In this document: positions 322 to 52,549 of the stretch, piece after piece
Layout: every line of letters begins with the position of its first letter
How positions within the stretch are numbered: position 1 is the stretch's first letter
Origin: Bacteroidales bacterium
Lineage (GTDB): Bacteria; Bacteroidota; Bacteroidia; Bacteroidales; UBA7960
Assembly: GCA_007125585.1 (NCBI GenBank)
Contig: SLCY01000012.1
Location: 9,627 to 73,626, forward strand
Length of the DNA: 64,000 bases
Direction: 5' to 3'
Position numbers and translations under genes: made by a program
The notes under the pieces: generated by a model
What the model was told of the DNA's origin: nothing
Seen by the model: only the letters and a program-made list of their open reading frames with translations
Database searches by the model: none

Positions 322-388
322 CCTGTGTTTGGATAATATATTCATTAAGCTGTGTTTATTGATTGACAATTATCGATTTTCAAGGTTG

Positions 389-396
389 CAAAAATA
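389..396 (-). promoter_or_regulatory. candidate Bacteroidetes -7 box TATTTTTG for the 1..321 gene
   Basis: Plus strand reads CAAAAATA, which is TAnnTTTG on the minus strand, 68 nt upstream of the assumed start. Confidence 0.3.
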
Positions 397-535
397 CGAA
401 AAAACAGGCAATTATTTAGTGGGGTACAAGGAAAGGGCACCAATGTTGTTGATGGTTGAGCCCAGGCCAATCCCAAAATGCAACCAGCCAATCACCAAAC
501 CGGCAAATCAGCCACCTCCCATATCCGGTTACTTT

Positions 536-692
536 TCATATATTTCTCCTGTAAAAAAACACCAGCATTTTGTAAAAAAACAATATACAAAATGCTGGTG
601 TACAGGAGGAACCGCTTCGCTTTCACATGATCTTTTTTCATTCGTCTGTGTGTAATTTCGAACGAAAAAAAATCATGTATATTTGTACAACC
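536..692 (+). repeat. intergenic composite repeat, copy 1 (hairpin 546-608 plus 55-nt core 633-688)
   Basis: Hand alignment to 43355-43500 and 48985-49235. Outer stem CTCCTGTA/TACAGGAG, inner 14-bp perfect stem CACCAGCATTTTGT/ACAAAATGCTGGTG, core TTTTTTCATTCGTCTGTGTGTAATTTCGAACGAAAAAAAATCATGTATATTTGTAC. Confidence 0.75.
678..685 (+). promoter_or_regulatory. TAnnTTTG -7 box (TATATTTG) at the 3' end of repeat copy 1
   Basis: Exact match to the Bacteroidetes sigma-A -7 consensus. It lies 234 nt upstream of the 919 start, so it would imply a long leader. Confidence 0.35.
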
Positions 693-845
693 GCTTGTTT
701 GTACATTAAGAGCTTTTTGATGGGAAACGGGTCGGTGCCATTTTTGGGCATACAATTGGATGACCATCGAATGATGATCGCCATGTGACCGAACCATAAA
801 CAACGATCATTATCTCGCATACAACGCCCATAACGAGGTTTTCTG

Positions 846-885
846 AACCCCTTAACCCCTTAACCCCTTAACCCCTTAACCCCTT
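846..885 (+). repeat. perfect tandem octamer (AACCCCTT)x5
   Basis: Read directly: five identical 8-bp units, followed by the degenerate AAACCT. The array ends 33 nt upstream of the ATG at 919. Confidence 0.95.
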
Positions 886-918
886 AAACCTATTTGACAT
901 TTTACAAAAAATAATCAT

Positions 919-2253
919 ATGAAAACACTGGCGTTTTTACTCACCGGAATACTGACCCTTGGATCCTGTGTTTTTGGGGAGAGCAAGGAGGAAGCAGGCA
1001 ACGATCTGGTTTCTTATATTCAATCAAGGGCAAACATCCTGGAAAATGCCGGAGACCTGGATGTGCTGATCTCGGATGCAGGGGAGCGGACGCTGGTGCT
1101 GATGGGTGAGGCGAGCCACGGGACACGCGAATATTATGCCTGGCGCGACACCATAAGCCGCCGTTTGATCGCCGAGCAGGGATATAACTTTATCGCGGTG
1201 GAAGGCGACTGGGCAAGTTTATACGAACTGAACCGGTATGTGAAAGACATGCCGGGTGCAGCGGGAAGTGCCCGTGAAGTATTGAAAGGTCTGGGAAGGT
1301 GGCCGTTATGGATGTGGGGCAATGAGGAGGTCGTGGCACTGGCAGAATGGCTGCGGACCTATAATGATCGGTTGCCTGACGGTGAAAAGGTTGGTTTTTA
1401 CGGAAAGGATGTATATGATGAATGGAACTCGCTGGATCAGGTGCTGGCTTTTTTGGCAGAACACGACGAAGAATTATATGATCGGGTAAAAAACCTGTAT
1501 GACTGCCTTAAACCTTATGGCAGGGACAGCTGGCAATATGCCCGGGATGTTGCTCGCGGGGCTGCTGATTGTGTTCTGCCGCTTGAGGCGGTGGTGGACC
1601 TGATACGGGATGAAGCGGACAGGTTTCGGCACCTGTATGCAAGTGATTATTTTTACCTGAAGCAAAATGCATTGGTGGTGAAACATGCCGAAAAGTTTTA
1701 CCGCAAATCCGTCACCCGACAGGATGCCAGTTCATGGAACAGCCGTGTCAATTATATGAATCTGACCGTCAACCGTCTGCTGGAATTTTATGGCCCTGAT
1801 GCAAAAGGCATTGTATGGGCCCACAACACACATATCGGGGATGCCCGTTTCACAGAAATGTCACAGCGCCGGCAGGAAAATATCGGGCAGCTTGCCAGGG
1901 TGGAACACGGCCCGGAGAATGTCTTCCTGATTGGCTTTGCGACATATGAAGGCACCGTAAAAGCCGGCGCGGCCTGGGGTGAAAGGATGGAGAGGATGCA
2001 GGTTCCTGCGGCACGCCCAAACAGCATTGAAGCACTGTTCAGGCAAACGAACCTGGAAAGCTTTTTCCTTCTGTTTGATGATACAGACCGTACGCACGAA
2101 GAATTCATGGAGGTACGTGGAAATCGTGCCATTGGTGTCGTATATAATCCCCGCCATGACCAGCACCAGTATGTGGCAACCATTGTGCCCCTGCGCTACG
2201 ACGCCGTTCTTTTCTTCAAAGAGACCGAGGCGCTGACCCCCATTGTCAGGTGA
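919..2253 (+). CDS. erythromycin esterase (Ere/PF05139-like) family protein, predicted lipoprotein
   Basis: 444 aa. The segment LVLMGEASHGTREYYAWRDTISRRLIAEQGYNFIAVEGDW and the later WAHNTHIGD are typical of the erythromycin esterase family. The N-terminus MKTLAFLLTGILTLGSC has a lipobox-like LGSC. Confidence 0.7.
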   Translation: MKTLAFLLTGILTLGSCVFGESKEEAGNDLVSYIQSRANILENAGDLDVLISDAGERTLVLMGEASHGTREYYAWRDTISRRLIAEQGYNFIAVEGDWASLYELNRYVKDMPGAAGSAREVLKGLGRWPLWMWGNEEVVALAEWLRTYNDRLPDGEKVGFYGKDVYDEWNSLDQVLAFLAEHDEELYDRVKNLYDCLKPYGRDSWQYARDVARGAADCVLPLEAVVDLIRDEADRFRHLYASDYFYLKQNALVVKHAEKFYRKSVTRQDASSWNSRVNYMNLTVNRLLEFYGPDAKGIVWAHNTHIGDARFTEMSQRRQENIGQLARVEHGPENVFLIGFATYEGTVKAGAAWGERMERMQVPAARPNSIEALFRQTNLESFFLLFDDTDRTHEEFMEVRGNRAIGVVYNPRHDQHQYVATIVPLRYDAVLFFKETEALTPIVR

Positions 2254-39594: not shown

Positions 39595-39712
39595 GCCCAA
39601 ATTAGCCATCTGAAAATCTATCCCGGGCAACACGAAGTTCCAATAACCAACCTGGGGCTAATAAAACAAGGGTTTTGGCCGCGGCGACCTGTGTGGTACC
39701 ACAAAAAAGTGG

Positions 39713-43354: not shown

Positions 43355-43500
43355 TAGACCCCTCCTGTAAAATCCAAGAGTATTTTGTTTTGTAAAATTC
43401 AAAATGTGAATGTACAGGAGGAGACGCTTCGCTTTCATCAATAATTCATTCATTCATTCGTCTGTGTGAAATATCGAACAAAAAATTTCGTGTATATTTT
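43355..43500 (+). repeat. intergenic composite repeat, copy 2
   Basis: CCTCCTGTA(43361-69)/TACAGGAGG(43413-21), GGAGACGCTTCGCTTTCA, (ATTC)x4 at 43444-43459, core CATTCGTCTGTGTGAAATATCGAACAAAAAATTTCGTGTATATTTT. Confidence 0.7.
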
Positions 43501-43532
43501 AGCGTTCATTAATCAGATGAGCGCTTTTTTTT
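43501..43532 (+). terminator. rho-independent terminator (clpX transcription unit)
   Basis: AGCGTTCAT / ATGAGCGCT stem (one G-U pair), 7-nt loop, T8 run. It ends 3 nt before the next ATG. Confidence 0.65.
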
Positions 43533-43535
43533 AAG

Positions 43536-48864: not shown

Positions 48865-49033
48865 CCTTTTGTTTGTTCTCTGCTATTGGAAGGCCGGGTT
48901 CAGGGTTGTCTCAGACCTTCAAAAAAACAAAAATAACAAACAATATGTTTGTCTGATGTGTTTTACCACATAAACATTGGTTAATGTACATTTCTCCTGT
49001 AAGAAAACACCACCATTTGGTGTGCTGACGGAA

Positions 49034-49122
49034 GAACGATGGAACGATAGAACGAAGCTTTTGGCTTTTGGCTGTTAGCTATTGGCTTTTAAACCATTAA
49101 ACCCTTAAACCTCTTTAACCTT
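49034..49122 (+). repeat. three abutting short-period tandem arrays (8-mer x3, 7-mer x4.7, 8-mer x4)
   Basis: GAACGATG GAACGATA GAACGAAG (49034-57); CTTTTGG CTTTTGG CTGTTAG CTATTGG CTTTT (49058-90); AAACCATT AAACCCTT AAACCTCT TTAACCTT (49091-122). Confidence 0.85.
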
Positions 49123-49224
49123 TTGACAAATGATAAACATAAATAAACAAGCAACGACCGGGTGAAAGACCTTGAGCGGTTTTTCATTCGTCTGTATGTA
49201 ATTTCACATGAAAAAAAAATCATG

Positions 49225-49232
49225 TACTTTTG
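49225..49232 (+). promoter_or_regulatory. TAnnTTTG -7 box (TACTTTTG) at the 3' end of repeat copy 3
   Basis: Exact consensus, 39 nt upstream of the ATG at 49271. Confidence 0.45.
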
Positions 49233-49270
49233 AAACACTAAATTTGCAATGCATAATTAAAACAGACTGT

Positions 49271-52147: not shown

Positions 52148-52258
52148 CCGCTCGCCGGGGAAGGTTGGGTAAGCTATACTACCCTGTGAAAAAGGCAACC
52201 AAGATACCAGGGTATAAAAATTTCAACCAGCTGTAGCCCCCGTTTGGTAAAAAAAATG

Positions 52259-52266
52259 TATATTTG
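52259..52266 (+). promoter_or_regulatory. candidate -7 box TATATTTG for tRNA-His
   Basis: Exact TAnnTTTG, 15 nt upstream of the tRNA. Confidence 0.5.
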
Positions 52267-52280
52267 CACCGCAATAAGAC

Positions 52281-52355
52281 GGTGGCTGTAGCTCAGCTGG
52301 TTAGAGCACCAGATTGTGGTTCTGGGGGTCGTGGGTTCAAATCCCATTAGCCACC
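52281..52355 (+). tRNA. tRNA-His (anticodon GUG) with encoded G-1
   Basis: Hand fold: G-1, acceptor GTGGCTG/TAGCCAC, D arm GCTC-AGCTGGTTA-GAGC, anticodon arm CCAGA-TTGTGGT-TCTGG, T arm GTGGG-TTCAAAT-CCCAT, C73. Confidence 0.9.
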
Positions 52356-52359
52356 CTCT

Positions 52360-52389
52360 AGGCCCCTCCTGAAGGAGGGGCTTTTCTTT
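52360..52389 (+). terminator. rho-independent terminator after tRNA-His
   Basis: AGGCCCCTCC-TGAA-GGAGGGGCTT, then TTTCTTT. Confidence 0.7.
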
Positions 52390-52549
52390 ATCAACCAATA
52401 TGTGCGGTGGTTTGATGCTTCTGAAGCCGTTTATGATGAATTGCTTCCTCTGGATGGTATAAACCCACAGAAACAATTCCCCTTTTCGTGGCCAACCGAA
52501 TGGGGTTCATTCAACACCCACTGTTATGTTGTAATCGGTCAAAATGATT

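Follow-up and report, generated by a model that had tools for sequence, protein, structure and literature searches.

The Correia elements of Neisseria are small repeats that carry promoters at their ends and alter the expression of neighbouring genes; they have terminal inverted repeats, a TA duplication and sigma-70 promoters. IS200/IS605 palindrome-associated elements and the REP, REPIN and BIME repeats are intergenic, multi-copy and hairpin-based, with no terminal inverted repeats; BIMEs are mosaic, and the insertion sites of IS200/IS605 elements lie 3' of a short word. Integron cassettes are small and non-autonomous and are moved in trans, and their attC sites are hairpins in which the stem base is conserved, some bases are unpaired and the inner part varies. 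The closest described case within the same order as the present one is BrickBuilt, a Porphyromonas gingivalis MITE (miniature inverted-repeat transposable element) that occurs in ~19 copies made of a leader, a tail and an internal minisatellite and that contains promoter elements (PMC4596501). Putative mobile promoters are upstream regions of 50-100 nucleotides (nt) that are highly similar to one another and stand before non-homologous genes, in families of up to 93 members (Matus-Garcia et al. 2012, PMC3488235). Here we describe an intergenic repeat from 64,000 nt of a Bacteroidales bacterium (assembly GCA_007125585.1, contig SLCY01000012.1, positions 9,627 to 73,626), a stretch that we call the window. 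We read it, with a probability of roughly 0.7, as a non-autonomous, site-specific, gene-less mosaic insertion element of the Bacteroidales that enters the -7 boxes of promoters and rebuilds them. Landing in promoter boxes and rebuilding them is probably what distinguishes it among small non-autonomous mobile elements.

Family profile hidden Markov models located three copies in the window and no others, each on the + strand, with cores at 631-690, 43449-43504 and 49177-49236. The 23-mer TTCATTCGTCTGTRTGWAATWTC begins at 637, 43453 and 49183, also on the + strand, where shuffled sequences are expected to contain none. Copy 1 (546-684, +) is a 139-nt element of the kind that we call type A, and consists of hairpin 1, a linker and hairpin 2, which belongs to the core. 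In hairpin 1 (546-608, +), CTCCTGTA at 546-553 pairs with TACAGGAG at 601-608 as the outer stem; an unpaired A run on one side (554-559) separates this from a 14-bp inner stem free of mismatches (560-573/587-600), which closes a loop at 574-586. The linker GAACCGCTTCGCTTTC (609-624, +) joins the two hairpins and is almost invariant in the type-A copies of several genomes. Hairpin 2, the core inverted repeat (625-678, +), pairs arms at 625-644 and 659-678 around an invariant 14-nt loop, TCTGTGTGTAATTT, at 645-658; the 20-nt arms are 90% complementary, and the 3' foot touches the rebuilt -7 box (678-685, +), in which TATATTT is derived from the element and the final G from the host. As single-stranded DNA copy 1 folds at -33.9 kcal/mol (z = -9.2). 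A first-pass annotation, made from the sequence alone, had described the fold at 546-608 and the linker, core and -7 box that follow it, and the sequence reads as it claimed; the imperfect inverted repeat that it had noted in the core is present but longer than it supposed, with the 20-nt arms given above.

Copy 2 (43362-43499, +) is a more diverged, 138-nt type-A element that ends in TATATTT with a T next to it. On one side it has the clpX stop codon (43328), on the other a conserved hairpin with eight T residues (43501-43533). This hairpin, AGCGTTCAT...ATGAGCGCT, stands right before the ATG of the DUF4294 gene, is kept in a sister species (L080 1443-1473) and is probably the clpX terminator. 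Copy 3 (48994-49231, +) is a 238-nt element of the second kind, type B, directly preceded by the host heptamer TACATTT (48987-48993, +). Its first 25 nt are those of the family (5' arm only, 48994-49018), its middle (49022-49176) consists of short tandem repeats and a conserved 66-nt block, and its core occupies 49177-49231. The -7 box of copy 3 (49225-49232, +) is followed 38 nt further on by the ATG of a thioredoxin-like gene (49271). The earlier claim that the same modules recur in three + strand copies therefore holds for the three cores, but copy 3 retains only the 5' arm, has a different middle of ~160 nt and lacks hairpin 1.

The syntenic loci in relatives were reached through homologues of the three downstream proteins, and the comparison set comprised the sister species GCA_036681025.1 (about 85% nucleotide identity) and outgroups at 70-75% protein identity. 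At the site of copy 1 the sister reads TTTCATATATTT^GTACAACCGC unbroken and the window has the same flanks with 139 additional nt (546-684); the 139 nt of copy 1 are inserted precisely at TTTCATATATTT^GTACAA. Outgroup L088 lacks the element here as well (TTTTTATATTT^GTAGAAAGG). At the left junction stands the host heptamer TATATTT (539-545, +), the old -7 box of the promoter of an erythromycin-esterase-like gene, now followed by C. TATATTT is thus found on both sides of copy 1 (539-545 and 678-684); the right one is the end that all elements conserve, and the left one is missing at copy 2. The copy 2 site is likewise empty in the sister (TTTTTTATATATTT^TAGCGTTCATT) and filled by 138 nt in the window, an insertion at TTTTATATATTT^TAGCG that is absent from the outgroups, where a 37-nt spacer is found. 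Copies 1 and 2 both lie directly 3' of ATATATTT.

The copy 3 locus holds two separate insertions. The flanks of window and sister are colinear once the elements are removed; the window element sits at GTACATTT^GAAACAC, while the sister has its own 226-nt element 15 nt downstream, at GTACGTTT^GTAATC. In each genome the site used by the other is empty (TATATTT^GTGAAACAG and TAAATTT^GCAATG), and the outgroup has a plain TTTG-N17-TAATTTTG promoter. All four independent insertion events thus fall directly 3' of TAnnTTT in one orientation. Across the family, 16 of 19 element starts are preceded by TAnnTTT, and seven of those 16 lie within a previous copy's box (CATGTATATTT|CTCCTG), accounting for the tandem composites described below. 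Two sites are not evident promoters, that of copy 2, between the clpX stop codon and the terminator, and the sister's own site, in a leader; for this reason the choice of site looks enzymatic rather than a product of selection. The element is multi-copy and gene-less, is inserted or precisely lost at defined TAnnTTT^ positions and ends in its own (G)TAnnTTT.

Further copies, for which the first-pass annotation had suggested looking beyond the window, were found in several environments. A core word occurred at nine loci in a scan of one genome per species; six of these are near-identical copies on separate contigs of one Lentimicrobiaceae metagenome-assembled genome (MAG), several at contig ends, and single copies came from Tannerella, Rikenellaceae and Bacteroidales MAGs. 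A metagenome scan returned 63 loci, 32 of them contigs of the soda-lake sediment sample SL_3KL_010, and ~19 of the metagenome matches are chance occurrences within genes. One of the soda-lake contigs (L020) is identical to the copy 1 region, which places the window organism in that sample. The element had no match among 72,556 plasmids, 50,697 phages and 2.9 million viral contigs.

The family is a mosaic between constant ends. Elements range from about 75 to 240 nt, contain no genes, start with C(T/C)CCTGTA and end with CATGTAnnTTT. The 5' end of the family is CTCCTGTAAAAAA(A/C)CACCAnCATTTTGT, and the 3' end is a 55-nt core, TTTTTTCATTCG-TCTGTGTGTAATTT-CGAAYGAAAAAAA-WTCATG-TATATTT. Types A and B agree in their first 25-30 nt and in their last 55 nt, with cores 88-100% identical over 53 nt. 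Between these ends hairpin 1 is completed and the linker added in type A (copies 1 and 2), whereas type B (copy 3) has tandem repeats of GAACGAWG, GCTTTTG and TTAAACCY together with the conserved 66-nt block, and no hairpin 1. Composites such as B-core-A-core (L037-L039) and 5'-truncated copies that retain the core (L009, L012, L024) also occur. Relatives of ~75 nt, from termite-gut and other metagenomes and from Bacteroidales, keep CCYCTG..., a 20-mer word of the TTTCATTCGTCTGTGTGTAAT type and the box, and have no hairpin 1; the distance from 20-mer to box is 14-15 nt in these short forms and 21 nt elsewhere.

Some loci show further rearrangement. A third exchangeable middle module of ~95 nt (CCGAGCCA...GAGCTCAATCT...TCAATCATT...AGATTAAT) was seen at L016 4344-4437 and, in the sister, at L084 9865-9960, in one case before the core and in the other inside it. 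L061 5273-5338 is a recombinant in which the A-tract of the core is joined straight to that of the 5' end (...CACATGAAAAAAACACCAGCATTTTGT...), a fusion that suggests exchange of modules at A runs. The same locus in two samples, L006 (1331-1477) and L014, differs by a 146-nt indel that starts within the core after CGAATGAAAAAAT and contains a palindrome whose arms are 19 nt long, perhaps a further small element.

Such recombinant forms (the L061 fusion, the swapped middle modules and the indel within the core) would also be expected if there were no dedicated mobility at all, and recombination, gene conversion or slippage between promoters sharing a -7 box supplied variants of which selection kept the useful ones. 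The truncated copies with an intact 3' core fit selection on the promoter part. Each precise insertion of 138-139 nt, however, would then need two crossovers within 7-nt homologies, and 4 of 4 junctions are exact at TTT^. Selection also leaves unexplained why copy 2 and the sister copy chose TAnnTTT words that are not obviously promoters, and we consider this account improbable.

With its boundaries placed, the element can be set against the small repeats already described. It resembles BrickBuilt in being a gene-less intergenic repeat of the Bacteroidales with promoter elements and, in type B, internal minisatellites. Compared by description only, BrickBuilt has small inverted-repeat ends, 23-nt units, bidirectional promoter activity and no defined promoter-box target, whereas the element here lacks terminal inverted repeats and has 7-8-nt units, one predicted outward promoter at its exact 3' edge and the site TAnnTTT^. 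Its cores match putative mobile promoters in length (50-100 nt), identity (at least 80%) and position upstream of non-homologous genes; that work, however, is a similarity catalogue with neither mechanism nor target site, while here insertion point, ends and empty sites are resolved. Correia elements share the promoter at the end but differ in their terminal inverted repeats, TA duplication and phylum. The first-pass annotation had offered a mobile, MITE-like regulatory cassette with a promoter among its readings, and copy number, mosaic structure, orthologous sites with and without the element and a -7 box at the 3' boundary all support it. The element shares with classical MITEs its copy number, lack of genes and presence or absence between relatives. 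A repeat search over 530-700 returned the two internal hairpins only; the ends of copy 1 do not pair, and without terminal inverted repeats the element does not qualify as a classical MITE. An incomplete literature search found no description of the core sequence or of an element that targets -7 boxes, and a full-text search gave only fish qPCR primers.

The -7 box of Bacteroidota promoters has the consensus TAnnTTTG (PMC7366714). Taken over 32 distinct copies, information content stays high through the G of TATATTTG and zero from the next base, and since the similarity stops at that G, the element ends exactly at a Bacteroidota -7 box. The box keeps a fixed offset in ~40 copies, reading TATATTTG in copy 1 (678-685) and TACTTTTG in copy 3, and in 27 of 42 copies a same-strand ATG that opens an open reading frame (ORF) follows no more than 50 nt past it. 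A termite-gut metagenome contig (L057) shows, in order, the intrinsic terminator of the upstream gene, the core, the box TATCTTTG, a SAM-II riboswitch and metK. The riboswitch (896-968) scores 61 bits against a gathering score of 44 and starts 7 nt past the box; given this order, the metK promoter must lie within the core. Upstream of each of the two tRNA genes in the window stand an A-tract and TATATTTG (39690-39710 and 52249-52266), laid out as in the 3' part of the core, and one tRNA upstream region gave a weak match to the core profile. A sigma-70 promoter scan, whose model is not relevant to this phylum, called no site.

Insertion into TAnnTTT^G would leave a dead box, TAnnTTTC, on the left and, because the element's 3' end is itself (G)TAnnTTT, would rebuild a complete -7 box on the right, joined to the host G and start region. 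Everything upstream of the rebuilt box would then be element DNA, namely an A-tract resembling the one in the tRNA promoters and a hairpin or inverted repeat of 20 bp whose loop does not vary. We infer that the primary sigma factor uses the new box and that the element swaps out the upstream half of the promoter. It would act as a portable promoter head, replacing the resident half or stacking on an earlier copy and reading into the downstream gene, while the upstream hairpin, linker and minisatellite modules may be exchangeable cargo or cis-acting sites.

The genes downstream of the family are unrelated and include tpiA, frr, ferredoxin, glmM, metK, ddl, pepD, kinases, response regulators and secreted proteins. 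This bears on another proposal of the first-pass annotation, a small regulon in which a transcription factor bound at TTCATTCG-N14-CGAAYGAA would make the repeat a shared operator and promoter co-regulating exported proteins. The inverted repeat does overlap the -33 region, and the three downstream genes in the window do encode secreted or lipoprotein-like proteins. That gene context holds within the window but not family-wide, where unrelated housekeeping genes follow 40-odd copies. Moreover, the copies have 140-240 nt in common, well beyond a single site; the half-sites vary compensatorily within one metagenome, which a single protein would not tolerate; and the element is missing at orthologous genes in relatives. 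We regard a regulon as the least credible of the explanations considered.

The hairpins are conserved in shape more than in sequence. Nine variants of hairpin 1, five of them with unrelated inner-stem sequences, all adopt one shape, with z-scores of -2.7 to -10.7 as RNA and -2.5 to -13.6 as DNA. When 19 copies were aligned by sequence, 87.6% of cells paired; 7 pairs had changed on both sides, against 1.9 in shuffles, a number that 0 of 500 shuffles reached. Compensatory change, which the first-pass annotation had proposed to look for in the inner stem, is present in hairpin 1. Similarly, 90.5% of cells pair in the core stem (22 copies), where 3 pairs and 9 cells are compensatory, again reached by 0 of 500 shuffles. 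Core stem variants CATGTG/CACATG, TATGTG/TACATA and CATCTT/AAGCTG occur beside CATTCG/CGAATG while the 14-nt loop stays constant. The stems are imperfect, many soda-lake copies having 1-2 mismatches (CGAACG, or mixed CATTCG/CACATG). Both hairpins are maintained through compensatory changes.

Covariation of this kind would also be produced by a structured RNA, either a small RNA on the minus strand ending at hairpin 1 and U7 or a cis-regulatory leader. Seven T residues do follow the inner stem of hairpin 1 on the minus strand, as reported in the first pass. The intrinsic terminator proposed there was not called by a terminator scan, because of the 13-nt loop, and on the + strand the soda-lake type has no T run; we did not retain hairpin 1 as a terminator. 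In Rfam searches of the window at the gathering threshold only 2 tRNAs were returned and no family reached its gathering score on the element, and the window copies with 18 related loci gave nothing at threshold when permissive settings were added. Recurrent microRNA and snoRNA matches at permissive settings were dismissed as generic hairpin matches. The best match on the element was Flavo-1 (RF01705), at 22.1-22.4 bits against a gathering score of 42, and only in L006 and L050.

Flavo-1 matches are known to lie sense or antisense to transcripts (PMC9723704). The motif resembles the present element as an A/T-rich hairpin of Bacteroidota that aligns weakly to core and linker, and a minus-strand match of 22 bits in two copies of Lentimicrobiaceae type speaks in some measure for an RNA. 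Membership was nonetheless rejected, as the score is below threshold, the strand is inconsistent, only Lentimicrobiaceae-type copies match, on either strand, and the window copies have no match. The statement that no named RNA family is recognisable was thus correct, and of the structured RNA proposed with it the hairpins are real and covary but fit no named family. Further evidence points away from an RNA. The element has no minus-strand -7 box and conservation is nil to its right, type B is entirely without hairpin 1, the element lies upstream of its own predicted start, and an empty/filled polymorphism at promoter boxes is unexpected for a small RNA gene. A structured RNA is therefore very improbable, and covarying hairpins in an element placed upstream of its own predicted start fit better with a role at the DNA level.

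Nor does the similarity reflect a peptide. ORFs 329-655 (+) and 492-803 (-) cross copy 1, and we rejected them as spurious because the stems vary freely and orthologous loci lack the element; the earlier view that the similarity is at the nucleotide level stands. The repeat creates annotation artefacts, in that both mechanical ORFs and a public gene call pass through it. The public call concerns a permease gene, which is called at 494 residues in the sister (L084 8410-9894), across the element, and corresponds to a 417-residue ORF in the window.

Since the element encodes nothing, it must be moved in trans. Our leading candidate for the mover, put forward tentatively and at less than even odds, is a site-specific recombinase that would read (G)TAnnTTT and the folded hairpin at the end; an IntDOT-like tyrosine recombinase is the likeliest such enzyme. 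In IntDOT recombination the B and D core sites are GTANNTTT (PMC5812530, PMC4145004), and the enzyme's top-strand cut falls between T and G of TTTGC (PMC2034462). The present elements belong to the same phylum and, at the level of sequence, match this preference: they follow (G/A/T)TAnnTTT^, with the element end GTATATTT^G and the host sites ATATATTT^ (twice), GTACATTT^ and GTACGTTT^. A circle excised by such an enzyme would carry the junction GTATATTT-CTCCTGTAAAA (GTATATTT-CTCCTGT). CTnDOT differs in its 65 kb, its own integrase, the GC after the cut and its 5 heterologous bases, whereas copy 1 has 139 nt and no gene, and the first 7 nt of the element (CTCCTGT) are invariant, unlike IntDOT heterologous bases. 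Two results weigh against the recombinase in particular. The host bases after the cut are GT, TA, GA and GT, that is, G or T followed by anything, and so the test for GC failed; and the candidate for an inverted second core site, AAAAAAAC, is a mere A run and unconvincing.

Hairpin 1 also resembles an integron attC site, in that it keeps structure over sequence, with a conserved stem base, a one-sided bulge and a variable inner stem. Integron cassettes carry genes and form arrays at one attI, while the elements here carry a putative promoter and are scattered over many promoter boxes; no IntI came up, and no search was aimed at one. The elements could, though we hold this doubtful, be promoter cassettes, gene-less circles of 75-240 nt handled by a recombinase of the host or of an integrative and conjugative element that uses (G)TAnnTTT^G as attachment site together with an attC-like hairpin. 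If so, the Bacteroidales would shuffle ready-made promoter heads between genes, a regulatory counterpart of integron gene cassettes, and the liking of CTnDOT-type integrases for GTANNTTT would be a liking for promoter boxes.

The same element, with the same promoter effect, might alternatively be moved as single-stranded DNA by an HUH/Y1 transposase, in the manner of IS200/IS605 palindrome-associated elements or of REPINs (mentioned in PMC8049555) through RAYT. It has hairpins near both ends that are conserved in structure with stem sequence free to change, asymmetric ends without terminal inverted repeats, a fixed orientation, insertion 3' of a short word with no clear duplication, and an end of its own that resembles the target. 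It departs from those elements in having a putative promoter at a fixed edge and in targeting the -7 box. Hairpin 1 begins at the boundary itself, which leaves no space for an IS608-like internal guide sequence; the short relatives have no hairpin 1; and TAnnTTT with its two free positions resembles protein recognition over base-pairing. A tblastn search of 580 kb of loci with IS200 TnpA, RAYT and XerD found none (E < 0.1 for IS200 TnpA and RAYT), a weak test that covered a fraction of the genome. This route is unlikely in our estimation, and ranks a close second to the tyrosine recombinase as the mover.

Several observations weigh against the reading of the repeat as an insertion element that enters and rebuilds -7 boxes. 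No mover was found, either by the tblastn search or among the unassigned ORFs of the window, where Pfam gave only housekeeping families and no integrase or transposase. Only four independent sites could be polarised with outgroups, and the heptamer is not preserved at the left edge of copy 2 (TATAGACCC). The first-pass statement that the core ends in TAnnTTTG is right for copies 1 and 3, but the box of copy 2 deviates from the consensus as TATATTTT. Since copy 2 lies upstream of the hairpin at 43501-43533, its promoter would run straight into a terminator; with its deviating end and the hairpin and T8 before the ATG, it may not drive its own gene. Promoter activity in general is predicted from position. 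In place of a -33 TTTG some 19-21 nt upstream, copies with the 21-nt spacing offer TTTC at N18 or ATTT at N19 and those with the 14-nt spacing TGTG, a poor match. The -33 motif is reported to be weak or absent in some Bacteroidota (PMC7366714). The two spacings between 20-mer and box, 21 and 14-15 nt, fit poorly with the fixed geometry of an activator site or UP element. Finally, all copies were retrieved through an exact 18-20-mer, and the invariance of that word is therefore partly by construction; additional copies found inside the retrieved loci by BLAST and fuzzy matching do vary in it.

If the element does enter and rebuild -7 boxes, it would be a natural means of rewiring transcription through exchange of the upstream promoter half. 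It would give the mobile promoter phenomenon, so far a similarity catalogue, a concrete mechanism and target site, would tie the Bacteroidota -7 box to the target sequence of Bacteroides integrases and could serve as a compact portable promoter for uncultured Bacteroidales. Its activity would be recent enough for sister species to differ at 3 of 3 loci examined. The family also disrupts metagenome assemblies, many copies lying at contig ends, and misleads gene callers.

A solo fragment of the type-B module lies at 831-920 (+), abutting the ATG at 919, and consists of (AACCCCTT)5 at 846-887 and AAACCTATTTGACATTT...; it matched the B-module profile at E = 8e-9 (nhmmer), and its tandem repeat was called by TRF. 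The octamer minisatellite (AACCCCTT)n at 846-887 separates the copy 1 promoter from the ATG at 919, is related to the type-B octamers, has G4 runs on the minus strand and is missing in the sister species. After the tRNA gene at 52282-52355 the window (52356-52542) has ~139 nt more than the sister (L084 13216-13263), with no similarity to the family. Copies 1 and 3 are present in all same-species assemblies, whose sole difference is the octamer repeat number; across those from different samples (L090-L096) the tract has 2, 3, 5, 6 or 10 units while the esterase protein is identical, and it looks like a hypervariable, contingency-type tract.

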